IMG/VR virus record: IMGVR_UViG_3300021512_000004
Span: 10,741-74,740 of that record
Strand: one strand, 5' to 3'
DNA: 64,000 bases
DNA from: a virus
Position 1 is the stretch's first letter, and every line of letters begins with the position of its first letter. The notes under the pieces are model-generated. The model was not told where the DNA came from and ran no database searches. It saw only the letters and a list, made by a program, of their open reading frames with translations. The translations under genes were made by a program, and so were the position numbers. Of the stretch, positions 35,262 to 58,882 are shown piece after piece.

Positions 35262-35274
35262 AGGAGAAACAAAG

Positions 35275-35571: not shown

Positions 35572-35572
35572 C

Positions 35573-36008: not shown

Positions 36009-36038
36009 CAAAAAACGTGGAATCTGGAGCTTATTAAC

Positions 36039-37127
36039 ATGCAAATAAGACTGTTCAAAAATCATAACTCGACAATAGGGTACTGGGAGTGCTGGACAAC
36101 TTCAGAAGGGGTTGTGCATTCAAAATGGGCAACCTCCCTAACCGGGAAGCCCACCTGCTATCAATATAGGGCCGAACCTATGAACGTAGGGAAAGCCAAC
36201 GAAACAACTCCATTGGAGCAGGCCGAAAAAGAACTTTTAAGCGCCGTTAAGCGTAAAAAAGATAAAGGGTATGTGGATACTATGAAGGAAGCGGAACTGC
36301 CCTGTACAAACAGCCTTGGTCTATTGAAGCCTATGTTGGCCACTCCAATTAATAAAATCAAAGCGGAGAAAATAGATTGGAAAAACGCCTTTGTGCAGCC
36401 CAAACTGGACGGTCACAGGGCGCTGTACACAGACGGGATACTTTATAGCCGTACAGGTCAGGAGTTAAACCTACCCCATGTAGTAAAGGCCATTAAGGCC
36501 AGCGGCCTTGGCCACCTTCATTTGGACGGAGAGCTGTACATTCACGGGTACACCTTGCAAGAGCTAAGCTCCCTAATTAAAAAGCAACAGCATGGGACGC
36601 AGCATCTTGAGTATCATATTTACGATATAGTTAACGACAAACCGTTTGTAGACAGATATGCGGCCATAATATTGGCAGATACCTCCCACTCACACATTAA
36701 AGTAGTAGAGACTACAGTTATTACAGATAACTCCGGGTTAGTCACATTACATAAATCCCATCTGTCCAATCACTATGAAGGAAGCATCTTACGTATGGGA
36801 CGTAAAGGCTACCAGGACGGGAAACGCTCACGAAATTTATTAAAACTGAAAGAGTTTCAGGACGCCGAATTTGAAATCATTGGCGTAGAAAGCGGGAAGC
36901 CTCACATAGGAGCAGAGGGTACTTTCCAAGTTCCAATATGGAAATGCGCTGTAGGTAATGGAGAAACCTTTACGGTTACAGCGCAAGGTAAGAGACACGA
37001 AAAACATCAACTGCATGAAGAATCCGCACAGCATATTGGGAAAAAGCTGACCGTAAAGTACCACTATTTGAGCAAGTTGGGAGTACCTCAGCTGCCAGTA
37101 GCGTTACGCTTTTTTGAGGGGTTGTAA
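36039..37127 (+). CDS. lig: ATP-dependent DNA ligase
   Basis: KPMLA, QPKLDGHR (KxDG), LDGELY, YHIYD, YEG and LLKLK motifs. Confidence 0.93.
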   Translation: MQIRLFKNHNSTIGYWECWTTSEGVVHSKWATSLTGKPTCYQYRAEPMNVGKANETTPLEQAEKELLSAVKRKKDKGYVDTMKEAELPCTNSLGLLKPMLATPINKIKAEKIDWKNAFVQPKLDGHRALYTDGILYSRTGQELNLPHVVKAIKASGLGHLHLDGELYIHGYTLQELSSLIKKQQHGTQHLEYHIYDIVNDKPFVDRYAAIILADTSHSHIKVVETTVITDNSGLVTLHKSHLSNHYEGSILRMGRKGYQDGKRSRNLLKLKEFQDAEFEIIGVESGKPHIGAEGTFQVPIWKCAVGNGETFTVTAQGKRHEKHQLHEESAQHIGKKLTVKYHYLSKLGVPQLPVALRFFEGL

Positions 37128-37561
37128 TGGATAAATGGGACGAGCGTTTTTTAGATATGGCGGAGTTAGTCAGCACATGGTCGAAAGACCCTGCAGCGAA
37201 GGTAGGCGCAGTCATTGTAGACGCAAACCAGAGGATAATATCAACAGGCTTTAACGGACTTGCACGTAATGTTATAGATGCAGCCTCGCGCTATTCAGAT
37301 AAAGCAATCAAACATCAAATAATATTACATGCAGAAAGTAATGCAATATTATTTGCTCAACAATCTTTAGCAGGATGCACCATCTACACATCACCTCTGC
37401 CAACCTGCGCCCACTGCTCATCGCAAATCATACAAGTAGGTATCACCAGGGTAGTTTGCCGCCGATCAGATGTAAGTGATAAATGGGAATTGTCTGCTGA
37501 GCTGGCAAGAAATATGTACGAAGAAGCGGGAGTTATTTTCGATGACAACATATCGAGTTAG
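37127..37561 (+). CDS. dCMP deaminase
   Basis: SKDP..KVGAVIV, TGFNG, HAE.NA and PTCAHC zinc motifs. Confidence 0.92.
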   Translation: MDKWDERFLDMAELVSTWSKDPAAKVGAVIVDANQRIISTGFNGLARNVIDAASRYSDKAIKHQIILHAESNAILFAQQSLAGCTIYTSPLPTCAHCSSQIIQVGITRVVCRRSDVSDKWELSAELARNMYEEAGVIFDDNISS

Positions 37562-38878
37562 TTGGGAAATTGATGTAGAAGCGGATTCCGTAAGCGGAGC
37601 CGCATTACAAGCATGGGAAATTATGAAAGATAATTCAGAAGATAATGAGGCCACGATATTAGGTATTCGTAAACTGGGAGCTAAAGAGGAAACTCTAGTA
37701 GACGTTTTAGATCTGAATCTGAAGGAGGGGGAAAATGACTTATGAAGAAGAGATCTTCAAAGGTGTTCTAATGTTTCGCCATAACCGCCACTCTGCTTGG
37801 CAGCAATGCTCGATTGAGAAAATGAGTGAGAGAATAATTAATCTGGAACTTAGTATTAAGGAGGCCAAGGAAGCAGGGTACATGGAAGGGAAGCGTTACG
37901 TGCAAGGCAGGATGAGATGCCTCCTTGGATTAGAAGATTAATTAATGTGTGAATTCACACAAAATAAAAGGTGACAGATATGATTAATATTGTACCGGAC
38001 TCAAAAGACGATAGCTTCATAGAAGCTAAAAACGTAAACCCCAACAATCCCATATTCGCCATTAAAGGGGGAAAAGTTGCGGACATGTTGGTTGCAGAAA
38101 ACAAAGGCTGGATACTTAGAATCGGAGGGGTGAATGGCTCATCAGGATACTTCGAAGACATCTCTGATTGTATAGAAGCTGGGGAGGAGTGTGGGTACAC
38201 CTTCCACCAAGAGGTAGAAGTTAAATAGTGAGGGATTACGACCACGAGGCTGCCAGTGAATTTGCTATGTTTGGTGGCTATGGAGATTGGTATTTTCAAA
38301 CCCCAGAAGAACAAGAGCAAGCTTTGAAGGATCGACTTGCCTTACCCAGCAGCGGAGAAGAGGCGCAGGAGGCTAAAGCAAGAATACGGAAGAGAATAGC
38401 ACTGCGAAAATTACAGAATCGAAGGGGGAGGCTACATGAAACTTAGTGAACAATTAAAACAAGACCATGAAAGTGGAGATTGTGGGCGTTGGCTGGAGGG
38501 TTACGCGGAAAGGGCAAAACAGATGGAAGACATTATTAAAGAACTTTGTGACTGTTTAGAGGCAACCTACTCAGGCTCACCAGAGGGTAGAGCCTACCTA
38601 AGAAAGGTAAGAGACGCCCTATCTGGACAATGCGATTAAGAGGGCTAAGTATGAGAAAGAGTAAAAACTTTAGGCCTATAACCCTCCAATTTAAATTATG
38701 GAGGTTGCGGAAAAAAGCCAGAGGTCATCGTAAGGCTTATTTAAAACTCTCTAACAAGTATTCTTGCGGTATTTTGTTACTGAATGGGGTAACTGGAGGG
38801 CGGTCTTGTTATCACATAAGAGAGTTAGAGAGAATTGTAAAGCTAATAAAAACTCTTGAGGAGGTAAGTAATGATTAA
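37542..38878 (+). CDS. Run of six small hypothetical genes (37542-37745, 37735-37941, 37971-38228, 38228-38446, 38436-38639, 38630-38878)
   Basis: Tightly packed plus-strand ORFs, most with RBS-like sequences. Confidence 0.5.
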
Positions 38879-39470
38879 CTGCACAGAAGAAAGTTTTAAG
38901 AAATCAACCAAAGATCACAAGATGCACATCATTAGGGACGAAGGTGTTCACCGGCATATACGCTTTAAAAAGCCAAGAACAGTCTGCTACAGCTTTGACT
39001 TAATCACCTGGCCAGGACACCTCTGTATTACTGGCGACTGTGGCACCTACGTGTTTCAGAGAACCGAAGATATGTTCAGTTTCTTCAGGGGCAACCCCCG
39101 GCAGAAAGAGAGGCTATATATCAACCCAGGTTACTGGGGAGAGAAGCTGCTCAGTATTGGAACTAACGCCGGGTACAAAGAGTTTGATGAAGATGTGTTC
39201 AAGAAGCGGGTAGCGGATCATTTTGAACAGTGGAAAGAACATAAAGATTTAACATCCAGCCAATCAAGGAGTCTATGGGAGGCGCTGGAGAGTACAGTTC
39301 TGTCCTATATGATGGACGGGGAAGTTCAGGCGTATCAGTCCATCAGTGAATTTGAGTATGAGGGCTTTCAATTTGAAGATTTCTTTGATGCTGGAGGCAC
39401 TGAAACATACGCCTTTCATTACTTGTGGTGCCTGTATGCAATTGTATGGGGTATTCAGCAATATGATTAG
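38871..39470 (+). CDS. Conserved hypothetical phage protein (FDLITWPGHL..TGDCGTYVF)
   Basis: GGAGG RBS; motif common in phages and prophages. Confidence 0.7.
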   Translation: MINCTEESFKKSTKDHKMHIIRDEGVHRHIRFKKPRTVCYSFDLITWPGHLCITGDCGTYVFQRTEDMFSFFRGNPRQKERLYINPGYWGEKLLSIGTNAGYKEFDEDVFKKRVADHFEQWKEHKDLTSSQSRSLWEALESTVLSYMMDGEVQAYQSISEFEYEGFQFEDFFDAGGTETYAFHYLWCLYAIVWGIQQYD

Positions 39471-39789
39471 AGATTTGACAGACCCAGCCAACACAGTGAT
39501 CTCAATCAACCTTAAAGATGGGAGATACTTTGAAGAATGTGACCTTACAAGTGATCCGTTTGGGGTGCCAGGGTTCGTTGCCTTTTGGGTAGGAGAAACC
39601 ATACTGGTGATCCCACTGTCAACAGTGGTCAGTATGACAATGCAGGTCGGCGTGTAGCCGCTTGGATCGGAGGGTGGGGATGAAGAAACTAATTATAGGC
39701 AACTGTAATAACTGTCCTTTTATACGTGACGAAGAAACACGCTCAGAATTATTATTTGCTTACATAACAAAAGACCAGAGGGAGAATAA

Positions 39790-40104
39790 ATGAACCTGAT
39801 AACATATAAATTTGTGATACCGAAAAAAATAAGCGCGTGTCTACCTACAGATAGGAAGCTGTTAGTCGAGGCAGAAGCCCGAGGATTTTATAATGGAGAT
39901 ACCCCATATAATACCCTGTTTTCTAAACTATTCTTTTCTGGTGGGGAGTTAAACTTCAAGAGTAATATACCTCCTAAATTTGCAGAGGGGGCCGCCACGT
40001 ATCTAAAACTATTCATGGGTAGCTTTGAACCAAAACACGAGGAGAAAGAGGCTATCTGCGCGATGATACTCAGTGAGCTGGTTGACTTACCGACAAAGGA
40101 TTGA
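39790..40104 (+). CDS. Conserved hypothetical protein (SFEPKHEEKEA.CA)
   Basis: GAGGGAG RBS. Confidence 0.6.
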   Translation: MNLITYKFVIPKKISACLPTDRKLLVEAEARGFYNGDTPYNTLFSKLFFSGGELNFKSNIPPKFAEGAATYLKLFMGSFEPKHEEKEAICAMILSELVDLPTKD

Positions 40105-40105
40105 G

Positions 40106-40342
40106 ATGAGAAAAATCACTATACCAGAATGGGCCAGGGAGTTACCTGACTCAGCTAACCTAACGGCCAAGGATGTACTCTCTATATTTGAGTACTCCCC
40201 AAAAACATCTTGGTCTACCTTGGTGAGTAATAAGCTATTACCGCCCCCAGACCGCACGATGCCTAGATGCGTAGGCCGATGCCCTATATCGTTTTGGTAT
40301 CTAGGGACTCTGCGCAATTTAGTTACTAATCATGGAGGTTGA
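40106..40342 (+). CDS. AlpA/excisionase-like winged-HTH protein
   Basis: LTAKDV..IF......W..LV....LPPP...W pattern. Confidence 0.5.
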   Translation: MRKITIPEWARELPDSANLTAKDVLSIFEYSPKTSWSTLVSNKLLPPPDRTMPRCVGRCPISFWYLGTLRNLVTNHGG

Positions 40343-41342
40343 AATGAACTTAATGACGGCGCAATCAGAGATAGTCAGGATGAAGCGGGAGCTCGGGGTT
40401 AGGAATTTTAAAGCCCTTAATGGCAGTTACTACAGGACAAAGAAAAGTCAAAGGGAGCTGATCACCTCCACCTGCGGGAAGAAGATATCCCAAGCTCACT
40501 TCCTAAGGGAGTGTGTGCGATTTCAAGGGGTGAAGGATGCCTTCAGAAAAGAGGCCAATTCTAAAGTCAGAGTAAGACGAAGCTACAGTAAGCCTTTTCG
40601 TTATGGAGATCTAAATCAAAGGATCTCAGATGGCAGGTGCGGAATCGCTCAAGCATTGAGAGCGCGGAAGGCCATTATACGACAAGCTGTTTCTGACAGT
40701 ATAAAGCACCCTGCGGGACAATCCACTATTAACATTGAAATGGTAGAGACGCCTGAGGAGGTTTATTACACCTCTCGCACGGAGAAAGGAGAGCAGTACA
40801 GCAGTAGATGTACGTTCAGAAAAACAGATTTGATTGTGAATGTTGGCCTACCGCATAAGTGGTACAGCAGAGTCTATAAAAAAGGATTCTCCACTGTGGA
40901 CGGACTGTTTAACTTAGACATATCCACACCTCTAAGGAACCAGCCTGAAGGGGTGGAGGTAAGAGCGGCAAAATTCCTATACCCTGGGAGAGGGTGCTCT
41001 TACCACGTAATGGATGGATTTATAGCGTTTGCGGAAGAGTTCTCTTTCCATGGAAAAACCCTAAAGTCCTCTATTAAAGGTGTGGCAAAGAAAGCCAGAA
41101 TTTCTGAGTTACTTAAGGCTAGGCCCTCAGAAATTATAGCCAGGGCTTTGAAGTCTTCCGTGAAAGTAGGGGTGAGGGATTCTTATAAAGCAGGTAATTG
41201 TCAGTGGGGGACGTTGGACTTTTGCCGCCGTCACAACTTAGATCCGAAGTCAAAGATACCCCTGGAGGAGTTAGCGGCCTTGGCTCAAAAAGAGCCCAGG
41301 GCAGAGGTACTAACCGTATTAGCTATGAAACTTGCAGATTGA
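40332..41342 (+). CDS. Basic hypothetical protein (C-terminal GNC..GT..F motif)
   Basis: Long ORF with RBS. Confidence 0.6.
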   Translation: MEVEMNLMTAQSEIVRMKRELGVRNFKALNGSYYRTKKSQRELITSTCGKKISQAHFLRECVRFQGVKDAFRKEANSKVRVRRSYSKPFRYGDLNQRISDGRCGIAQALRARKAIIRQAVSDSIKHPAGQSTINIEMVETPEEVYYTSRTEKGEQYSSRCTFRKTDLIVNVGLPHKWYSRVYKKGFSTVDGLFNLDISTPLRNQPEGVEVRAAKFLYPGRGCSYHVMDGFIAFAEEFSFHGKTLKSSIKGVAKKARISELLKARPSEIIARALKSSVKVGVRDSYKAGNCQWGTLDFCRRHNLDPKSKIPLEELAALAQKEPRAEVLTVLAMKLAD

Positions 41343-41355
41343 GGGAGTGAGCTAA

Positions 41356-42123
41356 ATGCTAAATGATATCGCAATACCTAAAAATCTGAATGACTTTATC
41401 TCAGCGCGTGACGCGGCAATAGCAGGGTTCTCCCACGCAAAGAGGGCTCTTTACCTAGCAGAGAAGGCGCTGGACTCTGTGATCTCCTACACCTGGCCTT
41501 TGGGATCTAATCCGAAACTTACCAATGAAGAATTTGTCAGGGAAATTGACAGAAGAATGTGGCGCAAGGCATTCGATCTGACCCGGTTTGCGCAGGTGAT
41601 GGACAGGGAGGCCAGAGAGAGCTTCAACCAAAGTCTTGACGGCAAACCTCCTGAATTTACGGCTGACAATGTTCGGTCTATCTTTTTGTCGGTGTCACAA
41701 GAGTCAGACCTGATGTTCAAGCGAGGGCTGGTTAATGTATTCAAGAGAAGAAACTCAGGCTATAAGACAAATAGCAAAGAGGCGTTTAAGGTTGATCGAA
41801 AGATGGTCATGACGTGTATCACCCGACCGAACTATGGTCGAGGGATGCAAATGTCCAGTTACGGGGCGGCAGAGATCAACGATATAGACAGGATTTTCAA
41901 AACCCTTGACGACAAGAAGCATAATCAAGGGGAGCTTGAAACAGCCCTTAACGCGGCCTGGAGAGATAAGCCGTATGTTTATGAAGATGACTACTATCAG
42001 GTCAAGGGGTTTAAGAACAGCAACGCCCACTTTGTATTCAAGAGGCAAGATCTGCTTGACAAGGCAAATTTGCTAATTGCCGAGTATTATGAGGATGGAG
42101 CGTTGGCCGATGGTTCTGTGTGA
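41356..42123 (+). CDS. DUF4942-like protein
   Basis: ID...W...F...MD...R..F...PPEFT..NV, DIDR.F..LD and KGFKN.NAH..F...DL....N motifs. Confidence 0.75.
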   Translation: MLNDIAIPKNLNDFISARDAAIAGFSHAKRALYLAEKALDSVISYTWPLGSNPKLTNEEFVREIDRRMWRKAFDLTRFAQVMDREARESFNQSLDGKPPEFTADNVRSIFLSVSQESDLMFKRGLVNVFKRRNSGYKTNSKEAFKVDRKMVMTCITRPNYGRGMQMSSYGAAEINDIDRIFKTLDDKKHNQGELETALNAAWRDKPYVYEDDYYQVKGFKNSNAHFVFKRQDLLDKANLLIAEYYEDGALADGSV

Positions 42124-42147
42124 ATTCACACAAAAAGGAGAGTAAGC

Positions 42148-43822: not shown

Positions 43823-44581
43823 ATGAAAAACATACAATTGAAAATACTGAGTCCGCTAGTAGGAAATGAGTTCCCAATTCCAGCTTACTCAACAGAGGGA
43901 TCTGCCGGAATGGATCTCAGGGCCTGCATTGAGCAGGAAATGGCTGTCAGTAAAGGAAAAGCAGTCTTAATCCCTACTGGGGTAGCTATACACATAGAAG
44001 ACCCTGCATACGCTGCAGTAATCTTACCAAGATCAGGTCTGGGCCATAAGCATGGAGTAGTCCTTGGCAATCTGGTGGGGCTGATTGACAGTAAAAATCA
44101 TAGGTAAATTGCTGTCATTAAATTCGGTGAATTGCTGGGAAATCCTTAGAGTTCTTATACCAAAGCGGAACTGGAAACGGTAAACGTAACGGTTTGAAAA
44201 GTTAAGAAATTGGACAATCAGCAGCCAAGACCCTGAAAAGTGTAAAAGTATGGGTAAGGTTCAACGACTAGGTGTTGAGTTAGCTAGACGATACTACACC
44301 CACGAGCGCCGGACACTTAAATTAAGTGAAGATATAGTCTGAACTTTAGGGAAACTTAAAGAAACAAGGATAAAGAGCCTTGTGATAACACGATGGATTA
44401 CCAAGGACAGTTGATGATCTCCTGCTGGAATAGGAGCGATGTGAGCTACATAGTGAAGCCTGGGGAGCGCATAGCCCAGTTGATCATTGTTCCTGTAGTG
44501 CAGGCAGAATTTGAAGTGGTTGAGGAGTTTAGCCAGAGTCAAAGAGGGGAGGGAGGATTTGGCAGTACTGGAGTTTGTTAA
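43823..44581 (+). CDS. dut: Trimeric dUTPase, intron-split: exon 1 43823-44092, exon 2 44396-44581 (151 aa)
   Basis: Motifs GSAGMDL, PRSGLG, GLIDS|DYQG, RIAQL and [10 protein letters not shown]; removing 44093-44395 restores motif III exactly in frame. Confidence 0.95.
44093..44395 (+). ncRNA. Group I self-splicing intron (IA-like, 303 nt, no homing endonuclease)
   Basis: P element AATTGCTGGGAA, Q AATCAGCAGCC, R GTTCAACGACTA and S AAGATATAGTCT. P1 exon UGACAGU pairs with GCUGUCA giving the U-G wobble; terminal G; P3 TTCGGTG/CGCCGGA; a P7.1 hairpin, P8 CACTTA/TAAGTG and a GAAA-capped P9. Confidence 0.93.
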
Positions 44582-44953: not shown

Positions 44954-45219
44954 TCCGAGGAACAGAAAAAGAAGACATTCAAGCCCTACTAAGACAGGGG
45001 ATATGTGAAGTAGTATTCACTAAAAAGGACGGATCAGAGCGACAGATGAACTGTACTCTCGATCAGACGTTCCTGCCATTAGTTGACCAGGAGTCTACTG
45101 GAACCGCAACAGGAGAGCATGAAGGATTAGTGACTGTTTGGGATACCGATGCTGAAGGAGGGAGAAGAATAATTCTTGAGAATATTATTTACGGTCCTAA
45201 GCTCCTAACAGGAGAGTAG
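44950..45219 (+). CDS. WYL-like/SH3 beta-barrel protein
   Basis: V.F.KKDGS.R.M.CTL...VWD pattern. Confidence 0.7.
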   Translation: MIRGTEKEDIQALLRQGICEVVFTKKDGSERQMNCTLDQTFLPLVDQESTGTATGEHEGLVTVWDTDAEGGRRIILENIIYGPKLLTGE

Positions 45220-45281
45220 GGCCGCTCCCAAAGAGGGGTAGGAGCGGCCCTACTAACATTGGAACTCCGCAGAGGGGGACA

Positions 45282-45616
45282 AGGCGCTCTGCGGAGTAGA
45301 AAGTATACCTTACAGGTTATGTACGTTCAATAGGAGTGGAGTTATGGCAAGCATTTTTGTAATGACAGACCCTATGTCTGAAGTTTACTACTCGCTGAAG
45401 GATAATCGGGTTAGAAAGTTCAACCTTCATGGGAAAACGCTGTATGACGAATATAAAGGGGTTTCTGCGGAAGGGTGGGAGGATGCGCTAGTAAAGTTCG
45501 TGAAACAGCAGCGATTGAATATAGATGGAGGGGAAGGACTTCCCTCATTCGTGTACGGCCTGATTGATAGAGGACTGCTGGAAGACTAACAGGCGCTCTG
45601 CGGAGTAGAAAGTATA
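45282..45616 (+). repeat. 26-bp direct repeat flanking ORF 45344-45589
   Basis: AGGCGCTCTGCGGAGTAGAAAGTATA at 45282 and 45591. Confidence 0.85.
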
Positions 45617-46507: not shown

Positions 46508-46644
46508 CCCCCGGGCTGGTTCCTTATAGTTGTAAATTTACTATTTGGAGCGTTAAACGTAAGGAATTTTACGCAGCTCTAACACCAGATTCAGCTGCGC
46601 GCTTGGCGCGTCCGCTGGAATTAATGTTAGATTGCGATTGATTT

Positions 46645-46884
46645 TTGGAGGATGAGAGAGTGGATAAAGCAAAAGAGATTCGCAGGGGATTTGTTGATAT
46701 TTGGAAATGGATAGGCTCGCCAGATTGTTGGTTTTTAATAATGGTTACGTTTTGCCTCTGGTGCATATTTTTAGCTCCAGAATCAGCTATCGCTGGGCTT
46801 GCGAATACATTTATTGTTATCGGGCTGGTTATAATTTGGCATTTGGCAAGAATCGCAAAATCCTTAGAGGACAAGGCAATCTAA
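46645..46884 (+). CDS. Cassette A gene: two-TM membrane protein
   Basis: Bounded by GTTAGATTGC...GCAATCTAAC; its stop is the TAA of TAAC. Confidence 0.7.
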   Translation: MEDERVDKAKEIRRGFVDIWKWIGSPDCWFLIMVTFCLWCIFLAPESAIAGLANTFIVIGLVIIWHLARIAKSLEDKAI

Positions 46885-46931
46885 CAACCAGCATAACGGG
46901 TGAGCGGATAATTTAACTGAGGATGGTGAGC

Positions 46932-47327
46932 ATGGAAAACCAGAACGAACAGAAGCAACAAGAAACCAGCGGTGAAGAAGCGAATCCGGTTGATGTAATT
47001 GTTAGTGCTCGCTGCCCGGACTGCGCTGCTCAGCCTGGCATGCTGCACAAGCTGGGCTGTGATGTTGAAAAATGCCCCGAATGCGGCTGGCAATATATCA
47101 GCTGTGACTGCCCCGCCGAAGAGACAACGGCTCCCCGCCTCCTCTGGTCTGGCGAATGGCCAGGGATAAGGGAGTGCCGCGAATTTGGATGGTATTCAAA
47201 ATTGGTTTCTGGGCGCGGCTGGGTGAGCTGTGACAAAAGCGAGCCTGGCGCAAGCGAGAGCCTCAACCGCCTTGCCGTTGACGCCACATGGGATAAAGAA
47301 AAAGGGCGCTACATACTAGAGAGCTAA
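46932..47327 (+). CDS. Cassette B gene: Cys-rich zinc-binding protein starting inside attC
   Basis: TGAGGA RBS and ATG lie within the attC loop; CPDC..H..GCD.E.CP.CG.Q..SC.C motif. Confidence 0.75.
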   Translation: MENQNEQKQQETSGEEANPVDVIVSARCPDCAAQPGMLHKLGCDVEKCPECGWQYISCDCPAEETTAPRLLWSGEWPGIRECREFGWYSKLVSGRGWVSCDKSEPGASESLNRLAVDATWDKEKGRYILES

Positions 47328-47398
47328 CGCTCGCATAAACTGCGGAGCGTCAGCGGAGTCAGATTTTCATGCGATTGTTATAAATCTGGAGTAGAACG

Positions 47399-47644
47399 AT
47401 GGCAACAAACAAATACGATTTGGACACAGCTTACATCGGAAAAAACCTTAAAATATTGCAGCGGGATATTGAGCAATATACCCCTCAAGAGATGAGGACA
47501 GCTTTGAACAAGCTGGCAGACACGTGCCATAACTTTGCTAAGTGCGGTCGCTGTAGCGGCTACAACACGTCAACGATGCGACACGATGCGGCTCACTGGT
47601 TTTGCTATGACTGCGCCGAGAAGTACCCACTAAAAGCCTTATAA
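47399..47644 (+). CDS. Cassette C gene: small protein with C-terminal zinc ribbon
   Basis: GGAG RBS; CGRC...CYDC; stop in TAAC. Confidence 0.7.
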   Translation: MATNKYDLDTAYIGKNLKILQRDIEQYTPQEMRTALNKLADTCHNFAKCGRCSGYNTSTMRHDAAHWFCYDCAEKYPLKAL

Positions 47645-47718
47645 CGCTCAATTAAACGGTTGCGTAGCAATCCGGTTTAAATTGCTTGTTATATTTAATA
47701 TTAATTCGGAGAAAAATC

Positions 47719-47967
47719 ATGAGTGAAATTGAAACAGTTGCAGCGAGTCTCACTATTGAAATGAATGTCACATGCCCTAATCCTGACTGCGGGGATTATA
47801 TAGATTTGCTGCGATCAGAGTATACGAACGGGGTGGATCATAATGAGGACGGGGGTTTGCTGCGCCAGATGTTCCCTGAAAATCATAGTAATGAAGATTT
47901 TGAGTGTGATGATGTCATTTGCACAAAATGCAAAACAATGTTCAATGTGCGCGAGCTGGAATGGTAG
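47719..47967 (+). CDS. Cassette D gene: zinc-ribbon protein
   Basis: GGAG RBS; CPNPDC...CTKC; bounded by GTTATATTTA...TAAATATAAC. Confidence 0.7.
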   Translation: MSEIETVAASLTIEMNVTCPNPDCGDYIDLLRSEYTNGVDHNEDGGLLRQMFPENHSNEDFECDDVICTKCKTMFNVRELEW

Positions 47968-48027
47968 TAAATATAACACCCTGCATAACGAGTGAGCGTG
48001 GACAACAAAATGAATGAGGTGAACACG

Positions 48028-48330
48028 ATGGGCAAGAACGAAGCCACGAAGACAGAACCCAGCGGCGAAGAAGCGAATCCAGTTGATGCACTTGTTATGC
48101 GGCAACTAGATAAAATCACTGGATATTTTCAGCCTAAACGCACGGAAACGCTGCGCGATGAAGCCCTGCCATTTGTTGGTCGGCTATTAACATTCGAGGC
48201 TCTTTGGCTGATAGATAAAGAAGATGGGGGCCCTTACGTCGGACAATGGGCGATGCGCCCGATTAATGAAGCAGGGGGCTGGTTGCCAATTGGGTGGGTT
48301 CCCGAAGAAGACATTAGACCTGCTACATAA
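48028..48330 (+). CDS. Cassette E gene: hypothetical protein starting inside attC
   Basis: GAGGTG RBS and ATG inside the attC loop; leader SGEEANPVD shared with cassette B. Confidence 0.7.
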   Translation: MGKNEATKTEPSGEEANPVDALVMRQLDKITGYFQPKRTETLRDEALPFVGRLLTFEALWLIDKEDGGPYVGQWAMRPINEAGGWLPIGWVPEEDIRPAT

Positions 48331-48412
48331 CACCCGATTCAGCTGCGCGTTTGGCGCGTCCGCTGGAATTAATGTTAGATTGCTAATTAATTAATTATGG
48401 GGCGATAACGAG

Positions 48413-48601
48413 ATGGCCGAAGTGAAGTTCTGGTGTGACAGCGGGGCAAACATCCATTCTTGCAATACTGAAACAGTTGATACCGTTGATGATTTAGGGT
48501 TAGACGAAGGGGAGTGGGAAAAGCTCACTGATGACGAAAGGCACAAGCATGTTAGGGATTGGGCTAATAACTACATAGAGATGGGGTGGGCAGCAATCTA
48601 A
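48413..48601 (+). CDS. Cassette F gene: small acidic protein
   Basis: Bounded by GTTAGATTGC...GCAATCTAAC. Confidence 0.7.
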   Translation: MAEVKFWCDSGANIHSCNTETVDTVDDLGLDEGEWEKLTDDERHKHVRDWANNYIEMGWAAI

Positions 48602-48643
48602 CGCCCACATAAGCGACTTGATGTGATTGTTATAAATGAAACT

Positions 48644-48808
48644 ATGAAAAAGTATATTTGCGTTAGGTGTTTAACCGTAATGAGCCGGGTTGAGCTTAGA
48701 GACGGAGCAAAACTTAAAAAGATTTCTATTGAGTTAAGCCGGAAAATTAAAATGTGCAAGTCTTGCACATGCCGGACTTTCTATAGTATTTAATTTGGGA
48801 GCAAGTAA
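48644..48808 (+). CDS. Cassette G gene (cassette end lost): 54-aa zinc-finger-like protein
   Basis: Manual translation MKKYICVRC...MCKSCTCRTFYSINLGSK. Confidence 0.5.
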
Positions 48809-48985
48809 ACGTAAGTAAAAAGACAGTTTTGAATGCTCCGAAGGTGAGCGTAGAGATAACTATTGTGTATATTGCAATGGGAAATATCGAGGTGTCCAGA
48901 GCATTACGACAATCACGAACAATCTAAGAAAGGCGCTACCGTCTTTCAAGGCAACATAATTAGATTGTTTTAAAGAGGGTAAAAT

Positions 48986-50079: not shown

Positions 50080-52881
50080 ATGTATCGCTACTATCAGTTG
50101 GAAGAAGGAAAGTCAGAGTGGAAGGTAGCCAGAGCCTCTGAGATAGAGGAAAAAATTAGAGAGGAGAAACCTAAAAGAGTTGCGATATTGGAAGTTTCCG
50201 AGCTGGTAACGGACGGGGCAGATAAAAGGTCATACTATTATAAAGGGCCTTTATATTTCGATATAGACTGTAAAGATGACCTTGATTTAGCTCTGCAATC
50301 AGGGGTTAGTTTAGTCAATAAATTAGTCTCTATGGGAGTACCGCAGCAGGAAGTTCAGATATTTGCCTCAGGAAGTAAGGGGGTCCATGTTCTAGTTGAT
50401 GAGAGAGTATTCAGCTCTGGGAGAAAGGTCAAAGCCCTGCCTCTAGTTTATAAGCAGATGGCCAGGGAGCTGTATGTTCCTGGAATGGATTTCGCAGTGT
50501 ATTCTTGCGGAAGGGGAAATGTGTTTAGGGTTCCCAACATAAAAAGGCCAGACGGGAATTATAGGATACCAATCCTGTACGACAAGTTAACTTCCCTAAA
50601 TGCAGAGAGTTACAGAGAACTTTGCTCTAAGCCTAGTGAGATATCCCACCTCCTGCCAGAGAACAAAGTAAAAGCCCTGCAGTTAGAAGATATGTTTAAC
50701 AGGTGCAAAAAGGCGGCGAACTCTAAGCCTGCAGTAGTTGTCACTGTACCTTCCAACCAGATGATACAGTTGAGAGACGTGACCCCTCCTTGCATACAGA
50801 AGGTGTGCGACTGGAAAGGGCTGAGGGCTGAGGTAAACCTGAACCAAGCAGCTATGCAAGTAGCAGTTTTCCTAAAGGCTGCCAGTGTCCCAGACTCCCT
50901 GTCTTCGGGGATGATAACCAGATTAGCGGAAAACTCCGTAAGCTCGAAGTATGACAACTGGAAATCTAGGCTAGAGCACATAAAGGGCCAGGTAGAGTAC
51001 ATGAAGGGCTCTGAATATACCTTCGGATGCAACTGCATGAGGTCTCTGCTTCTGAAGCGGCCCTGTGAAGGGTGTCCCATCGAGAAGGATCAGGCGTTCT
51101 CTGAAGAGGCTTCACATGGCGGGTTGATAGAGAAGAATGGTGGGTACTACCTCAGAGGGGCAGAGAAGGATCGAATGATAACAGACTGGACGATGAAACC
51201 TATGGACTCTTTCATCGACATCCCTCAGGACGGATCCAGTCAACCTAGAAGGGTGGGAACTCTCTTCGAACTGATACAGAACGACGAAACCATCTGTACC
51301 GTTACAGTAGACGAAACCAGCTGGATGTCTCGATCAGGATTCCTCAGGGACACCACGGAGTCCGGGTATATCCCTCTCCGATCCCCCTGTAGCTACTACG
51401 GGCAAGATGCAGACCTACACAAGATCAGAAATCACGTTTTTAGGAAGGAGAGCGACATGGGAGAAGTCTACCAAGTTTATACTTGTGGGATACACGTTGA
51501 TAAGGTGAGCCATTCTGACGTATTCACCTACGTTGAGCCTGAAATGTCCATAAATAGTAACAGGGTTTCAGGCACTCATAAACTGGCAGGCCGGGTTGTA
51601 GCCAGACCTTACTTCGCTGAAGTGGGAGTGTGTAAGGAGGGAGACGAGGCTGCAGACGAGGCTCTGTTTAATCTGATGGCGATGAATGAACCCCACGTCA
51701 TGGCGAAGACACTTGGTTGGTTTGTAGCCTGCCATTTGAAAGTCCATCTGACAAAAGTCTATCACCAATTCCCCGTCCTGAGTTTGTGGGGAGGGGCGGG
51801 ATCTGGGAAGTCTATCACTGCAGGTCTAGTTAGTTGGATCAACGGGACAGACTACATGGACAGAGATACAGGAGTGAACGTCTCCAACATCACCAACTAC
51901 GCCTTGCTGGAGTATTCGGCCAGCACAACGACAATCCCAAGGCTGATGGAGGAGTTCAACGAGTCTAAGATGTCAGAGAAAGCCTACAACTCTGTTGGGG
52001 AAATTCTAAAGGCCAGCTGGAACGGGGAAACTTTGCTGCGGGGTACTTTAGGCAACAAATCGGATAAGGGGAGGACGGGGGCAGTGGTTACGGCTATTCC
52101 TATCACAGGGCCTCTATGTGTGATGAGCGAGCAAAGGCCGGTTATGCCTGCCATCCAGGAGAGGTCTTTGGACGTATTCTTATCAAAGCCTGGGAAGAAA
52201 GGAAGAAAGCCTTACATGAGGAAGGCTTCTTCTGGAAAGCTCAAGTTAAGGGAGATAGGAAAGGCACTTATGTTTAAGGCTCTTCAGACGGATATAAAGA
52301 CAGCGACCAAGTGGTTTGACGAGGTGGATGATAGTTTGTCCGACGAGTTAGACGATAGGCCGAGATATTGTCAGATGGTGGCAATGATAGGCTTGAGATT
52401 TCTGAAGTTAGTGCTAGAGAAAGACCTTAAACTCCCTAAATCCTGTGCAAGATTAGACGACCTCATCTACACTCAGCAGTCTTACTTTGACAGATTGGCA
52501 GGTGATACTGCCATACTGGGGGCCAGCACTGAGATAGACAGGATATTGGACAAGATGGCCATCATGGCGTCCTTGACCACTGTAGGTAACGGGGTTGAGT
52601 GGCTTGTGGCAGGAGTTCACTACCTGAAAGGTGGGTCAGAGCTGCTGATAGATCCAACCCTATGTCACGCCATGTACAAGCAGTTCTGTGCTAGGGAAAG
52701 CAGAGAGGTGGTGATTATCAAGGAAGCTGCACAATTCAAGAAACTCCTCAGGGATGAAGCGTACTTCAAAGAGATTGTTAGGGATCCAAATATATTTGAC
52801 GGTAGGGAGCTTTATTGCTTGGACCTAGAATCCATGAAGATGCAGGAGATTCCTGTAGATAGGTTTGAGGAGTTGACGTAA
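50080..52881 (+). CDS. Primase-helicase fusion (AEP primase, PriCT/Cys region, P-loop helicase)
   Basis: LYFDID, SGSKGVH, PPCI and C..C...C..CP motifs; Walker A GGAGSGKS. Confidence 0.85.
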   Translation: MYRYYQLEEGKSEWKVARASEIEEKIREEKPKRVAILEVSELVTDGADKRSYYYKGPLYFDIDCKDDLDLALQSGVSLVNKLVSMGVPQQEVQIFASGSKGVHVLVDERVFSSGRKVKALPLVYKQMARELYVPGMDFAVYSCGRGNVFRVPNIKRPDGNYRIPILYDKLTSLNAESYRELCSKPSEISHLLPENKVKALQLEDMFNRCKKAANSKPAVVVTVPSNQMIQLRDVTPPCIQKVCDWKGLRAEVNLNQAAMQVAVFLKAASVPDSLSSGMITRLAENSVSSKYDNWKSRLEHIKGQVEYMKGSEYTFGCNCMRSLLLKRPCEGCPIEKDQAFSEEASHGGLIEKNGGYYLRGAEKDRMITDWTMKPMDSFIDIPQDGSSQPRRVGTLFELIQNDETICTVTVDETSWMSRSGFLRDTTESGYIPLRSPCSYYGQDADLHKIRNHVFRKESDMGEVYQVYTCGIHVDKVSHSDVFTYVEPEMSINSNRVSGTHKLAGRVVARPYFAEVGVCKEGDEAADEALFNLMAMNEPHVMAKTLGWFVACHLKVHLTKVYHQFPVLSLWGGAGSGKSITAGLVSWINGTDYMDRDTGVNVSNITNYALLEYSASTTTIPRLMEEFNESKMSEKAYNSVGEILKASWNGETLLRGTLGNKSDKGRTGAVVTAIPITGPLCVMSEQRPVMPAIQERSLDVFLSKPGKKGRKPYMRKASSGKLKLREIGKALMFKALQTDIKTATKWFDEVDDSLSDELDDRPRYCQMVAMIGLRFLKLVLEKDLKLPKSCARLDDLIYTQQSYFDRLAGDTAILGASTEIDRILDKMAIMASLTTVGNGVEWLVAGVHYLKGGSELLIDPTLCHAMYKQFCARESREVVIIKEAAQFKKLLRDEAYFKEIVRDPNIFDGRELYCLDLESMKMQEIPVDRFEELT

Positions 52882-54396
52882 ATGTACACTCTGGACGACT
52901 ATTATAAGGCTGCAGGGGTGGAGCACACTATTGCTTTCGCTCCTCACATTGGGATGGATAAGACACCAAGACCTCATCAGATATCAGGGTTAAATCTCGC
53001 CCTGAGAAATGATAAGTTCGGTTTGTTTGATGACCCAGGGACGGGGAAGACTTTGATAGCCCACGCATTCACAATGTACTGGGTGTCTGAGGGGGAGAAG
53101 GTATTAATATGTATGCCCCCAACCCTGCGTTACCAGTATTCAGAGTCGCTGCATGAGGAGTATCCTGGGTCGGAGAATTACTTCTCTCCTGTCATACTGG
53201 ACCAAGGACCAAAGAAGAGAGAGCAACTGTACAAAGAATGGAAGGAGGGGAGAGCTCCGGAGATATTGATAGTAGGGATTCAGCTGTTTAGGCAGGAGTT
53301 TGAGAAGCTGGATAGATTAGGATATAAAATTCTCATCGTGGACGAAGCGCATTGTCTAAGAGGACATGAATCCTCCCTATTCAGTTGCGTAAATAAGTTC
53401 TTGAATGAGAACAGAGGTACTGGAGGGTTGCTGATGACCGGAACCCCGTTGTACAACGAACTGAAGGATGGGTACTCTCCATGCAAACTGCTGGATACTT
53501 CTTCTTACAGGAACTACAAGGAGTTCGACAAGATTCACTGTAGATGGAAGAGTATTAGGTTGAAGACCCCTAAGAGACTTCCAAGTGGAAGAGTTCAAAG
53601 AGGGTTCAAGATATTCCAGGGGTATGTGAACCAAGGAACTTTGCAGGCCAATCTGTACAGACACGCAAGGAGGGTGTTGGGGTCTGAGGTTAACAAGCAC
53701 ATAAAGGTTAACCCAGTAACTGAGGTTCCAGTTAAGTTAACCACAACTCACACTAACTTATATCAAAAGCTGATCAGAGAGAGGTTCCTGGAACTTGCTG
53801 AAGGGGAGATCATATCTGCAGTAACCGAGCAATCCTTGAGGCAGAAATGCTTGCAGATAGTGACGTGTCCTGAGCTGTTCACCGAGAACTTCAGAGGGAA
53901 GAACAACATTGAGGAAACGGTTAGAACCTTGATGGATACTGTTAACATCAAGAAGACAAAGATAATCCTATTCCTAAATTTTAGAAGTACTGTAGAGCAG
54001 TACCTAGAGAAGTTCAAAGCATTAAATCCTGCGGCCATGTATGGAGGCTCGTCTAATGAGAAGAACCGTAAGAAGTTTCTATTTGATGACTCTTGTAGGC
54101 TGTTAATAGCTAACCCTGAGTCCGCCGGAGTGGGGTTCAACTTCCAATCCGTATGTCATACAGTCATCTTTGGGGAACCTACTTCGATCCCTGGACAGTT
54201 TAAGCAGGCTGTGGAGAGGGTGGTGAGGGGGGATCAGAAAGAGATAGTTAATATTTACATCCTGAAGGCATTAGGCACATTGGCCTTGAAAGCTACCAAG
54301 AACATGAGGAGGAAAGCCCATGAAGCAAATAAAGTAAACAGGGATAAGAAATCTCTGATGGATGACTTTAGATTAAGTAAACAAGGGAGGTATTGA
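52882..54396 (+). CDS. SNF2-family helicase
   Basis: PGTGKT, DEAH, TGTP and GVGFNFQ...Q...RV.R motifs. Confidence 0.9.
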   Translation: MYTLDDYYKAAGVEHTIAFAPHIGMDKTPRPHQISGLNLALRNDKFGLFDDPGTGKTLIAHAFTMYWVSEGEKVLICMPPTLRYQYSESLHEEYPGSENYFSPVILDQGPKKREQLYKEWKEGRAPEILIVGIQLFRQEFEKLDRLGYKILIVDEAHCLRGHESSLFSCVNKFLNENRGTGGLLMTGTPLYNELKDGYSPCKLLDTSSYRNYKEFDKIHCRWKSIRLKTPKRLPSGRVQRGFKIFQGYVNQGTLQANLYRHARRVLGSEVNKHIKVNPVTEVPVKLTTTHTNLYQKLIRERFLELAEGEIISAVTEQSLRQKCLQIVTCPELFTENFRGKNNIEETVRTLMDTVNIKKTKIILFLNFRSTVEQYLEKFKALNPAAMYGGSSNEKNRKKFLFDDSCRLLIANPESAGVGFNFQSVCHTVIFGEPTSIPGQFKQAVERVVRGDQKEIVNIYILKALGTLALKATKNMRRKAHEANKVNRDKKSLMDDFRLSKQGRY

Positions 54397-55318: not shown

Positions 55319-58300
55319 ATGTCTGTAGAGATCATAAAGACCATACTTGACGCAAAAGGTACAGTCATCCACATGTATCACAGAGGAAGCGACCTTCACC
55401 CTGTCCATTTTGGAGAAGAAGGCGAGACTGTAGCCAGCGCATCCCACTGTGTAAGGAATTGGATAGAGGGGGTTCTTCTCCCCACCTTGGAGCGGTCAGC
55501 TCCTCAAGATGTTATAGCTGCATGGGATGGGGGAAACCTTTACCGGGAGACTTTATATTCAAAGTATAAACTCCACAGGAGGGGGGAAAAGACAGAGTTT
55601 CAACTGGAGGAGGCCAACCAACAGGAGATTGCACAGAAAACAATAAAACTTCTTTTGGCTCATCTTGGGGCTGTGAACGTCTTTGTCAGCGGGGTAGAGG
55701 CGGATGACGTAATTGCCCTTCTGTGCGAAGGATTAAAGAATGAGAAGAAGTATATACAGACTGGGGATGAGGACCTAATCCAGCTGGTGAACGATAACAC
55801 TGTAGTCCTCCTGAAAGAGAAAGTAATTTTGGGAGAACATAAGGGGGTTCCCCCCCATCTAGTAGTGCTACATAAATCGTTAGTTGGGGATAGTTCAGAC
55901 GGGTATCCAGGAGTGAAAGGGTTCGGTCCAGCTGCCTGGAAGGATCTGGAGGAGGTCTATGGGAGAGATGGCCTTGAAGAGATAGATCAGTGCATGGTCA
56001 ACAAAGACTACACTTTGATAGAAGAATGTGTGGAGCAGGACGGTAACAAACATCTGTCGAAAGCCTTGGACGACCTAAAGTCTTGGAAGATGTGCTACAA
56101 CCTGGCCACCCTGCATCCTGAGATTTGTTATGACACGAGAGGGCGCAGGGTGATAAGGCCCCAATGGTTCACTAAAATACCGGACAACGGCAGCAAGATT
56201 AGAAGGATTCTGGAGTCGGTAGGAGGAATGGAGTTCTACAGCTCATTAGAGACTCACCTCAGAACAGAGACCTTGGTTACGGCTGACAACCTTGAGGCTG
56301 CCTTTGACGCATTGAATGAGGAGCTGCCAAACAGCCCTCTGGTCTCCTTCGATTATGAGACTACCGATACCTTAAAACATGCTCCATTTACGGAGGCCTT
56401 GTCTGCAATGCAGCGAAGCAGAGGTGGGTATGTAGATGTCCTTAGTCAAGTTATCAACGGAGTTTCATTTAATTTTGGCAGAAACAATCAACACACCTTA
56501 TATCTGTCAACTGATCACAAGGATACCAATAACGTAGATCAGGAAGTTATCTGCGATGTACTGAAAGAAGTCCTTTACGAAGTTAAAGTTCCTATGGCAG
56601 CCCATAACTTCTCGTTCGAGGAGCAAGTGACAAAGCAATGCCTGGGGATGGAGCTGCCGCCGATGGCGGACACCAAGATCCTGGCCAGCTATGCAGATGA
56701 AGAGACTCAGGCCGGGTTAAAGTCATTGAGCTTTGACTATCTTGGGTACACCCAGACCACCTACAAGGAACTGCTTGAGTCTGCCGGAGTTGACGATATG
56801 TCGCAGATGTCAGGGGAGCAGGTCCTGAGCTATGGTTGTGATGACTCAGTGATAACCTCTCACCTGCATAAGCTATTCACCCTGATCTGTAAAATAGAAG
56901 GCACCTTGGAGTTTGTAGAGGGTCAGGAGTACCCTACCGTCCTCCCACTGAATCGGAGATTCGAAGCCGGGATGGCTGTTGACTATGAGGTAATGTCCAA
57001 ACTGCAAGAAGAGGACAGGACAGTTGTTGAGGAAAGTGAAGTCCGATTAAGAGAGTTGCTTTTGGATAACTGCTGTCAGGTAAACAAAAAGGCTGCAGAG
57101 GACTACATCGCCTCAGAGTTCCGATCTTTAAAGAAGCTTAAGGAGTTGGACGGGAAGAAGCTCAGGAGAGAGGAGGAGTTGTTACGCTACGAAAACAAGT
57201 CTGAGTACATTCCTTACTTCAAAGAGGAATCTTCGTTGGAGTTTACAGGAACTGCCGGACAGCTGAAAAAGATAGCCCTGCTTGTCGGCTTCCCAGAAGA
57301 CATTCAAATGCAGTCAGTGGCTAAAACAAAGATAAATCTATGGCTGACCGAGATCAAGGAGTGGGACTGGAAAGAGGCCATAGAGCTCGACAGGCTGGCC
57401 CAGGCTGGAGAGTTCCTGACCCTGCTGGCTGAGTCCGCCCACCAAGTTGCCAAGAAGGAAGGGGAGGAGTTTGAAGAACTCAAAAAATTCTGTTCCGGAT
57501 TCATGGACAAGAAAACAAAGACAGTCGGAGACGCTCTTAATCTAAATAGCCCCGCACAGATGCAGGAGCTGCTGTACTTAAAACTAGGCTTCTCTGTATC
57601 CATGAGGACTATGCCACAGAGGGGGTCAAGGAGAGATGAGCTAGGCCTTCCTGGAAGTCCGGGAACCGATGAAGACTCAATGAAGTTCCTAGTGGCTGAG
57701 CAGACTGAGGAAGGGGATTGGAGAAGGGAGGTTGTGTCTTTGGTGATAGCATCAAAAGCCAGCTCCACCAGAGAGAGTCTGTATTGGAAACCGTACCCTA
57801 AGTGGAAGCACCCAAGAGACGGGATGATCCATCCAGGGATAAATTGTCCTGCTACAAAGACCAGAAGACCAAAAGGAACCTCCCCAAACATCCTCCAAGT
57901 ATCTAAAGGGCCGACAAGAAGCTTCGTCATCCCGAGATACACAAAGGATGTGATAGTTGCTTTGGATTTCTCAGGGCAGGAGTTGAGGATAACCGGATCA
58001 GAGTCAAAAGACTCCGAGCTTATAAGCGCCTACACGGCAGGAGGGAGTTACATTGATGAAGACGGGATGGAGCGACAGATCCTTAAAGACATACACTCTG
58101 TTACGGCTTGTTCTTTTGCCTCTAAGATAATAGAACAGTCGGTTGGAAAGGAGGCTATGGCATCGCTTCCAGTGACTAACGGAGGGTTGGATTATCAGTT
58201 CTTCATATCAGTTCTTGAAGGGGATGAGCAGGTTATAGCAAACTCAGGAATCCTTGCAGACGAGCTGTCTAGATTGATCTACCTCTGCAGGAAGATGGCT

Positions 58301-58882
58301 AAAGTGGTCAACTTTTTGATCATCTACGGAGGAGGTCCTACAACTCTGGCCAAAGACTTGGGAGTTACTGTCAAATTTGCTGAGCAACTGATGGAGGCTG
58401 TGTTCAACTCTTACAAGATGTTGGCTCCTTGGCAGGAGAGGGTGATAAGGTTTGCCAGGGATAATGGATTTGTGAAAACTGCTTACGGGAATTGGAAGCA
58501 TCTGACCGACTCAATACTGTCCAGGGATAGCGGGCTCAGGGGGCACGCTGAGAGGCAGGCAGTTAATCAGACCATTCAAGGGTGTGCAGCTGACATCCTT
58601 AAGGTAGTCCTGTCAGGGTGCCAAAAGACGAAGCTATTTGAGGAAACTGGAGCAACTTTCTATGCTCCAGTGTATGACGAAATATTGGCATCCGTACCTA
58701 TAGACAACCTGTTTGAGTACTGTGAAAGGATGCAAACCTTGATGAACATAACGCCTCCAGGACACGCCATTCCAATGATGGCGGAGGTTTCTGTAGGCCC
58801 AAGCTGGTTTCCAATGACAGAGCTAGGGGATCGCCCTTCTGAGAAGAAGTTAATAGCTTGTGTAGATTCATTTACTAAGTAG
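55319..58882 (+). CDS. polA: Family A DNA polymerase with 5'-3' and 3'-5' exonuclease domains
   Basis: EADDVI and GDSSDGYPGVKGFG (5' exo); FDYET, HN..F and YGCDD (3' exo); DFSGQELR, R..AKVVNF...YG and QG.AADI (pol); motif C is YDE. Confidence 0.95.
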   Translation: MSVEIIKTILDAKGTVIHMYHRGSDLHPVHFGEEGETVASASHCVRNWIEGVLLPTLERSAPQDVIAAWDGGNLYRETLYSKYKLHRRGEKTEFQLEEANQQEIAQKTIKLLLAHLGAVNVFVSGVEADDVIALLCEGLKNEKKYIQTGDEDLIQLVNDNTVVLLKEKVILGEHKGVPPHLVVLHKSLVGDSSDGYPGVKGFGPAAWKDLEEVYGRDGLEEIDQCMVNKDYTLIEECVEQDGNKHLSKALDDLKSWKMCYNLATLHPEICYDTRGRRVIRPQWFTKIPDNGSKIRRILESVGGMEFYSSLETHLRTETLVTADNLEAAFDALNEELPNSPLVSFDYETTDTLKHAPFTEALSAMQRSRGGYVDVLSQVINGVSFNFGRNNQHTLYLSTDHKDTNNVDQEVICDVLKEVLYEVKVPMAAHNFSFEEQVTKQCLGMELPPMADTKILASYADEETQAGLKSLSFDYLGYTQTTYKELLESAGVDDMSQMSGEQVLSYGCDDSVITSHLHKLFTLICKIEGTLEFVEGQEYPTVLPLNRRFEAGMAVDYEVMSKLQEEDRTVVEESEVRLRELLLDNCCQVNKKAAEDYIASEFRSLKKLKELDGKKLRREEELLRYENKSEYIPYFKEESSLEFTGTAGQLKKIALLVGFPEDIQMQSVAKTKINLWLTEIKEWDWKEAIELDRLAQAGEFLTLLAESAHQVAKKEGEEFEELKKFCSGFMDKKTKTVGDALNLNSPAQMQELLYLKLGFSVSMRTMPQRGSRRDELGLPGSPGTDEDSMKFLVAEQTEEGDWRREVVSLVIASKASSTRESLYWKPYPKWKHPRDGMIHPGINCPATKTRRPKGTSPNILQVSKGPTRSFVIPRYTKDVIVALDFSGQELRITGSESKDSELISAYTAGGSYIDEDGMERQILKDIHSVTACSFASKIIEQSVGKEAMASLPVTNGGLDYQFFISVLEGDEQVIANSGILADELSRLIYLCRKMAKVVNFLIIYGGGPTTLAKDLGVTVKFAEQLMEAVFNSYKMLAPWQERVIRFARDNGFVKTAYGNWKHLTDSILSRDSGLRGHAERQAVNQTIQGCAADILKVVLSGCQKTKLFEETGATFYAPVYDEILASVPIDNLFEYCERMQTLMNITPPGHAIPMMAEVSVGPSWFPMTELGDRPSEKKLIACVDSFTK

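Follow-up and report, generated by a model that had tools for sequence, protein, structure and literature searches.

An Array of Seven Putative Integron-Type attC Sites with Reversed Cassettes and No Detected Integrase in an Uncultured Tailed Phage

Integron attC sites are not confined to bacterial chromosomes and plasmids: a survey by Qi, Rajabal, Ghaly, Tetu, and Gillings (2023, Front Microbiol, PMC9892861) lists 17 attC clusters in phages, most with two to four sites per phage, and shows that the integrase IntI1 recombines five of six sites from three virulent phages with attI1. The attC1 site of phage H101 was recombined into attI1 by IntI1 in the same work, the supplement of which lists bottom strands. 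The published phage arrays are called typical, and a reversed orientation of their genes goes unremarked (PMC9892861). Here we describe a stretch of about 2.2 kb in a linear viral contig of 74,740 nt from an uncultured phage (IMG/VR record IMGVR_UViG_3300021512_000004), of which bases 10741–74740 form the 64-kb segment referred to below as the window. With good confidence, we regard this stretch as a cluster of seven integron-type attC sites lacking an integron integrase (CALIN), located upstream of the replication genes of a tailed phage. The original prediction, made from the sequence of the window, had proposed an attC array and had been unaware of such arrays as a characterized feature of lytic phages; attC clusters of virulent phages have in fact been published with IntI1 assays (PMC9892861).

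In the description of Nivina et al. (2016, PMC5027507), the attC bottom strand starts with the R' box (RYYYAAC), followed by an unpaired spacer of 5–6 nt, the L' box, and a variable loop; its 3' half consists of L'', in which position 16 (usually a G) and a T at 23 or 24, six pairs away, are extrahelical, then a second spacer and R'' (GTTRRRY). The AAC and GTT of the R boxes are invariant. The array in the phage contig resembles bacterial integrons in this architecture, in the logic of a crossover between AA and C (AA/C), in the complementarity of cassette ends, in stop codons that lie inside the R box, and in the occurrence of attC families across unrelated genes. It differs in that no intI was found on the contig and in its very small cassettes (271–443 nt for the six with defined ends) with a cargo of phage-type small proteins. 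A further difference concerns orientation: The genes of bacterial cassettes lie mostly on the top strand for expression from the Pc promoter (PMC5027507), whereas here all of them are on the bottom strand.

The stretch comprises seven co-oriented small open reading frames (ORFs; genes A–G) with seven imperfect palindromes between them, each bounded by TAAC and GTTA, as the original prediction had stated; we mapped the palindromes as sites S1–S7, with coordinates that count the 7-nt R boxes (table 1). They fall into four families, termed alpha (S1 and S6, 91% identical over 65 nt), beta (S2 and S5, which have both arms in common as well as an 80-nt stretch of 74% identity), gamma (S3 and S7, with arms in common), and delta (S4), and the predicted reuse of attC families with unrelated genes holds. 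Six of the seven genes terminate at the TAA of a TAAC, the exception being gene D, which stops at a TAG nine bases before the TAAC of the next site.

The ends of the gene units had also been predicted to be complementary, and this is evident throughout the chain. The six bases 3' of GTTA in one site pair with the six bases 5' of TAAC in the next at 30 of 36 positions, as against 13 of 42 for the two flanks of the same site. When the partners are permuted in all 720 ways, only two arrangements attain as high a total; these two are equivalent, as the flanks of S2 and S7 are identical. Complementarity is perfect (10/10) at the ends of three cassettes and reaches 13/14 in another. Such a chain is the footprint that would be expected of circular cassettes joined at AA/C.

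The orientation of the cassettes had to be revised with respect to the original prediction. Within a family, the sites are homologous from TAAC onward to beyond GTTA, which fits a crossover at AA/C in the 5' R box of the + strand, that is, at the left end of each site. Read with the attC first, the two alpha cassettes have one complete site in common, extended R box GCAATCTAAC/GTTAGATTGC included, whereas reading the gene first would assign this R box to two unrelated attC bodies. The beta sites fit only the former reading: their hairpin loops contain the translation start of the gene in their own cassette, with its ribosome-binding site (RBS), its start codon, and a leader of about 20 codons, the leader being shared between the two. 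Each cassette therefore consists of an attC site followed by a gene, that is, it is reversed, and the + (coding) strand is the attC bottom strand. A cassette begins at the C of TAAC and closes with the TAA that stops its gene.

Folding gave the same orientation. As positive controls, we used class 1 integron arrays from five plasmids, from which 11 attC bottom strands were folded with DNA parameters and only the AAC:GTT pairs forced, by the same script as for the phage sites. The first bulge on the 3' arm was at position 16 in 10 of the 11 controls and at position 17 in the other; for the phage sites, folded as the + strand, it was at 16 or 16–17 in six of seven, the bulged base being G in S1, S5, S6, and S7 and the bulge comprising two bases in S3 and S4. 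Folded as the − strand, the sites show their bulges on the 5' arm, which is the wrong one, so that the coding strand is the equivalent of the bottom strand. A spacer internal loop at positions 9–11 from the 3' end was present in all + folds (in S3 as a single mismatch at position 9), and the controls behave likewise in this pipeline. AAC and GTT are found in all seven sites; the full R-box consensus is matched by ATCTAAC in S2 and S7 and by GTTAGAT in S1 and S6, and the remaining R boxes deviate as TATAAC/GTTATA, like those of the IntI1-validated H101 sites.

We also built a covariance model (R1) from 12 aligned class 1 attC bottom strands, with the R- and L-box structure supplied and no phage sequence included. 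R1, which is a proxy and not the model of IntegronFinder and gives only rough E-values, was applied to the two strands of the window without filters. The original prediction had held that a lack of covariance-model matches would speak against attC sites; with this 12-site proxy, the five best matches in the window were S1, S6, S4, S5, and S7, in that order, and S3 ranked tenth. All listed matches to the sites are on the + strand and span the full length, with ends that coincide precisely with the 7-nt R boxes. Across 967 kb of other phage loci, only two matches reach 19 bits. A rule-based detector was also applied: in its first, strict form, it caught no more than 3 of some 13 real attC sites and was relaxed afterwards, and the relaxed rule recovers about 9 of these 13 and, within 2 kb, six of the seven phage sites. 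Elsewhere in the genome and in relatives, it gives ~1.3–1.4 matches per 10,000 strand-bases, or ~0.27 expected in the array. Rfam had no match within the array, a near-identity search of the region against GenBank phages returned none, and exact patterns of the alpha site were not matched in IMG/VR.

An alternative that we consider very improbable is that the palindromes between these early genes are hairpins of ordinary regulatory function (as terminators, RNase sites, or promoter-stem-loop modules) and take no part in site-specific recombination; in this view, TAAC would be a stop codon plus one base, and TGTTA would belong to an extended -10 element. In its favor, each site is preceded by a stop codon and followed by an RBS, weak terminator-like calls fall on S1 and S6, and the bases past GTTA in S3 and S4 resemble -10 hexamers. 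However, no sigma-70-like promoter was predicted on the + strand in the array, where promoter counts are below the shuffle mean, and the phage's own family of intergenic palindromes differs in sequence and is absent from the array. Regulation would also leave unexplained the chain complementarity, the position-16 bulge in four independent families, and the matches to an attC model. A combined promoter-plus-terminator function was rejected, as no + strand promoters are predicted and complementarity and bulge remain unaccounted for.

Arbiol et al. in 2010 reportedly described PeSLs (early promoter plus stem-loop) as mobile regulatory cassettes of T4-type phages and proposed gene shuffling between phages; these elements are thought to act via homologous recombination. 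The resemblance lies in small accessory phage genes between repeated stem-loop modules in a hyperplastic early region, and the difference in that no promoters are predicted here and the sites are of attC design. In the attC array, transcription of the cassette genes would proceed by read-through from upstream phage promoters.

The closest described counterpart of the attC array is that of Pseudoalteromonas phage H101 (PH101). Outside a single 72-nt insertion in the terminal loop, S5 is identical to H101 attC1 at 45 of 57 positions (79%), a score matched by 2 of 500 shuffles; the corresponding alignment of S2 gives 38/53. R1 finds four sites in H101 (20.6–26.9 bits, 57–77 nt), two of which are near-duplicates. 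Both these matches and the published bottom strands are on the strand of all annotated genes, each upstream of a gene; as the H101 bottom strands are thus the coding strand, the H101 array is reversed as well. The two arrays have in common the arrangement of an attC cluster between small hypothetical genes of a lytic-type phage without an integrase, and R boxes of the TATAAC/GTTATA type. They differ in the number of sites (seven against four) and in the presence, here but not in H101, of four attC families and of two sites with a 72-nt loop insertion bearing a translation start and leader. The phages themselves are unrelated, with genomes of 132 kb for H101 and 75 kb here.

Further arrays came to light through gene B. 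This gene has 22 homologues and belongs to a family present at 139 viral loci, mostly without flanking hairpins, and its conserved core begins at CPDC, three codons past the GTTA of S2; one homologue, P0002, has 59% identity. The two strong R1 background matches both adjoin homologues of gene B, one in L006 and one in L008; these are unrelated phage contigs with small arrays, in which R1 matches on the coding strand have gene B homologues between them. One site of L006 and three of L008 have a start codon and leader inside the loop, and part of a G-L-D-T motif shared in L008 is encoded by the R'' box itself. In L006, a GC-rich provirus contig, one stop-free frame spans an upstream gene, whose translation we take to resemble an HD-type phosphohydrolase, an attC-like site, and the gene B homologue; this continuous frame may be a fusion or may reflect the scarcity of stop codons at 70% G+C.

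Table 1. Coordinates of the putative attC sites, cassettes, genes, and other features. Positions are those of the window unless another sequence is named; aa, amino acids.
Feature	Position	Strand	Remarks
S1, alpha	46577-46632	+	56 nt; R1 26.9 bits, E 1.2e-4, best match in the window
S2, beta	46879-47007	+	129 nt; arms and leader homologous to S5
S3, gamma	47322-47383	+	62 nt; R1 10.0 bits, E 5
S4, delta	47639-47694	+	56 nt; R1 19.3 bits, E 0.014
S5, beta	47971-48100	+	130 nt; R1 14.4 bits, E 0.32; G bulge at 16
S6, alpha	48325-48380	+	56 nt; R1 21.7 bits, E 0.003; G bulge at 16
S7, gamma	48596-48635	+	40 nt, minimal or truncated; R1 13.9 bits, E 0.43
Cassette 1	46583-46884	+	
Cassette 2	46885-47327	+	
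Cassette 3	47328-47644	+	
Cassette 4	47645-47976	+	
Cassette 5	47977-48330	+	
Cassette 6	48331-48601	+	
Cassette 7	48602 to about 48793	+	right boundary undefined
Gene A	46645..46884	+	hydrophobic, 79-aa ORF; probable start GTG 46660; stop TAA in the TAAC of S2
Gene B	46932..47327	+	131 aa, Cys-rich, zinc-ribbon-like; protein common in phages
Gene C	47399..47644	+	81 aa, C-terminal Cys pairs
Gene D	47719..47967	+	82 aa from ATG 47719, zinc-ribbon-like; weak matches only (PHROG 6298, IBR)
Gene E	48028..48330	+	100 aa; leader motif SGEEANPVD in common with gene B
Gene F	48413..48601	+	62 aa, DUF7167 / PHROG 8831
Gene G	48644..48793	+	49 aa from ATG 48644, two Cys pairs
Direct repeat bracketing the array, imperfect	46523-46570, 48776-48822		TATAGT, ATTTA, then exact TAAACGTAAG
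Palindrome after gene G	48925-48965		arms CAATCTAA / TTAGATTG
Major head protein	8593-9792	-	
Large terminase	13256-15025	-	
Primase	50080-52881		
Helicase	52882-54396		
DNA polymerase	55319-58882		
Intergenic palindrome TGTGAATTCACA	27108-42130		11 copies, 10 exact
Group I intron	44064-44361		Rfam RF00028, 101.9 bits, E 6.6e-26, full-length model
Two adjacent hairpins	45206-45319		14-bp and 11-bp GC-rich stems
H101 sites (NC_029094 73500-81500, locus L131)	2420-2477, 3030-3086, 3809-3885, 4432-4488	-	found with R1
Long sites with translation start in loop, L008	4345-4449, 4652-4777, 5303-5449		
Long site with translation start in loop, L006	2436-2554		
Stop-free frame, L006	1840-2892		

The individual sites in the window vary in how closely they follow the attC pattern. 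The fold of S1 has the spacer loop, bulges out a G at position 16, and ends in a loop of 3 nt (z-score -4.1 against shuffles), and S4 shows the pattern of three extrahelical bases, with positions 16–17, 20, and a T at 24 unpaired (z-score -3.8). In S1 and S6, there is only a 1 × 2 loop at positions 20–21 in place of the distal T. The loop of S5 carries the RBS, the ATG (48028), and the leader of gene E, and that of S2 those of gene B (ATG at 46932); S2 is the weakest of the long sites, its constrained fold pairing otherwise and without the position-16 bulge, so that its G bulge was read by eye from the homology with S5. The constrained fold of S3 has bulges at 16–17, 21, and 25, and its unconstrained fold favors another structure. 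S7 consists of an R box, a 5-nt spacer, an L box in which the G at 16 is bulged, and a loop of 3 nt. Between S3 and S7, a compensatory change from G:C to A:T is found in the L box, which we read as a structure under selection.

A six-frame search of the 74,740-nt contig gave no match to PF00589 or TIGR02249 with an E-value of 1 or less, nor any to the serine recombinase family PF00239 in the contig. The predicted lack of an integrase in the window thus extends to tyrosine recombinases in the whole 74.7-kb contig. No complete integron, that is, an intI with adjacent attI and Pc, was found on the contig; seven sites within 2.06 kb and no integrase on the contig correspond to a CALIN, which is defined by two or more neighboring attC sites with no integron integrase close by. 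As the contig has no recombinase, we infer that the enzyme would be that of the host, acting in trans: an IntI-type tyrosine recombinase, supplied by the bacterial host and acting on the folded bottom strand, would have assembled the array and may still rearrange it. That an integron integrase would recombine the sites is suggested only by homology, that of S5 with H101 attC1.

The sites might instead serve a recombinase of the phage lineage that is not an IntI, for example an Xer-like enzyme, encoded on a missing part of the genome or since lost; the contig is only ~90% complete (CheckV), and apart from IntI, no tyrosine recombinase but XerCD is known to act on folded single-stranded DNA (PMC5027507). 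We judge this improbable, given that the design of the sites agrees with the IntI-type attC position by position, that a model trained on class 1 sites detects them, and that the homologous H101 site is an IntI1 substrate. In addition, the genome of the L008 phage (G002), which has a similar array and is rated 100% complete, is also devoid of tyrosine and serine recombinases. A host tyrosine recombinase acting in trans on an imperfect hairpin of one phage strand has a parallel in the attP of CTX-type filamentous phages and XerCD, which differs in that the whole phage is inserted into dif and in having no cassette array, AAC/GTT R box, or position-16 base. By eye, the arms could also be read as dif/Xer-like, an interpretation abandoned in view of the attC model and the H101 homology.

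Several observations weigh against an attC array served by a host integrase. With respect to the sites, the three of 56 nt are one base below the described attC range of 57–141 nt and S7 is clearly below it, shorter than any described attC and without a second extrahelical base. The distal T is at position 24 in S4 and 25 in S3 and is missing in S7, S2 is absent from the R1 list and S3 scores only 10.0 bits, and by free energy alone only S1 and S4 stand out from shuffles. With respect to the surroundings, the integrase is absent from a contig that is itself incomplete, and no attI-like site stood out beside the array, although no dedicated search for attI or Pc was made. A gapped alpha pattern gave five matches in 185,579 bacterial genomes, all chance occurrences inside coding DNA, and no bacterial array with a matching attC was found. 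None of the nearest primase relatives (42–56% identity) has an array like S1–S7, no close relative with a different cassette content was found, and neither a recombination product nor a polymorphic relative was seen. The primase relatives were too distant, and without arrays, and were dropped from breakpoint analysis.

Some of these points would also suit a fossil array, in which the attC sites are genuine and the block was acquired once, through homologous or illegitimate recombination with another phage or a bacterial integron, and is now inert in this phage, no integrase ever having acted on it there. Off-target or illegitimate recombination has been proposed for the entry of arrays into phages (Qi et al. 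2023, PMC9892861), the contig has no recombinase, S7 is truncated, S2 and S3 are low-scoring, the last cassette has no closing partner, and an imperfect direct repeat of TAAACGTAAG and neighboring bases brackets the array. We nevertheless regard a fossil as unlikely, though less so than a non-IntI recombinase: three cassettes have kept end complementarity at 10/10 and one at 13/14, S1 and S4 have a near-ideal architecture, and a compensatory change preserves the stem of S3 and S7, all of which points to continued selection rather than decay.

At its right end, the attC array terminates with gene G as the last cassette, no closing R' partner being found downstream of it. The right copy of the TAAACGTAAG repeat overlaps the end of gene G. 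In the 192-nt noncoding gap after gene G, there is a palindrome whose arms match the extended R box of the alpha type, with G...A in place of the C...G of the sites and ~30 nt between the arms; it has no R1 match and could be a decayed site or the end site of the array.

Among the cargo, genes A and C have no Pfam or PHROG match, and no relatives of gene F were found in IMG/VR. A protein encoded on a 2.1-kb contig elsewhere (P0023) is 95% identical to the product of gene F.

The contig, with a G+C content of 46.6%, is that of a tailed phage (table 1), and the array sits amid small ORFs on the same strand, 1.3–3.5 kb upstream of the primase gene. The nearest relatives by primase identity are at 27% among GenBank phages, at 42% in IMG/VR, and at 54–56% in two metagenome contigs. 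The kinship with the H101 sites and with primases of Vibrio and Pseudomonas phages gives only a hint of a marine gammaproteobacterial host. A search for IntI in 401 genomes of one bacterial class provided no lead to the host, and none of these genomes is used here. The palindrome TGTGAATTCACA occurs in 11 copies in the window against 0.13 expected, all in the rightward small-gene region and none within the attC array; it represents an intergenic repeat family distinct from the attC sites and may be an operator or may be related to a methylase. A group I intron was also detected, and upstream of the array there are two adjacent, very stable hairpins, which are probably terminators or a processing site.

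Phage CALINs have been a known kind since 2023, and the array described here adds to them a well-resolved example of seven cassettes, which joins the few attC clusters known in lytic-type phages and is tied by sequence to sites already proven to be IntI1 substrates. Their systematically reversed build and the translation starts in attC loops seem to be undescribed in the literature that we searched. Going beyond the published description, the bottom strand is the coding strand here, in H101, and in two other phage contigs, and an attC loop is able to hold the RBS, start codon, and leader of a gene. We tentatively suggest that phages may keep a pool of reversed cassettes of their own, separate from the bacterial pool and exchanged among unrelated phages via the integron integrases of their hosts, with some attC loops doubling as modules for translation start and leader. 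If so, the reversed build would keep phage genes silent in a bacterial integron and let them be expressed by read-through in the phage. Should arrays of this kind indeed be reshuffled by host integrases, phages, like bacteria, would exchange accessory genes by way of integrons.

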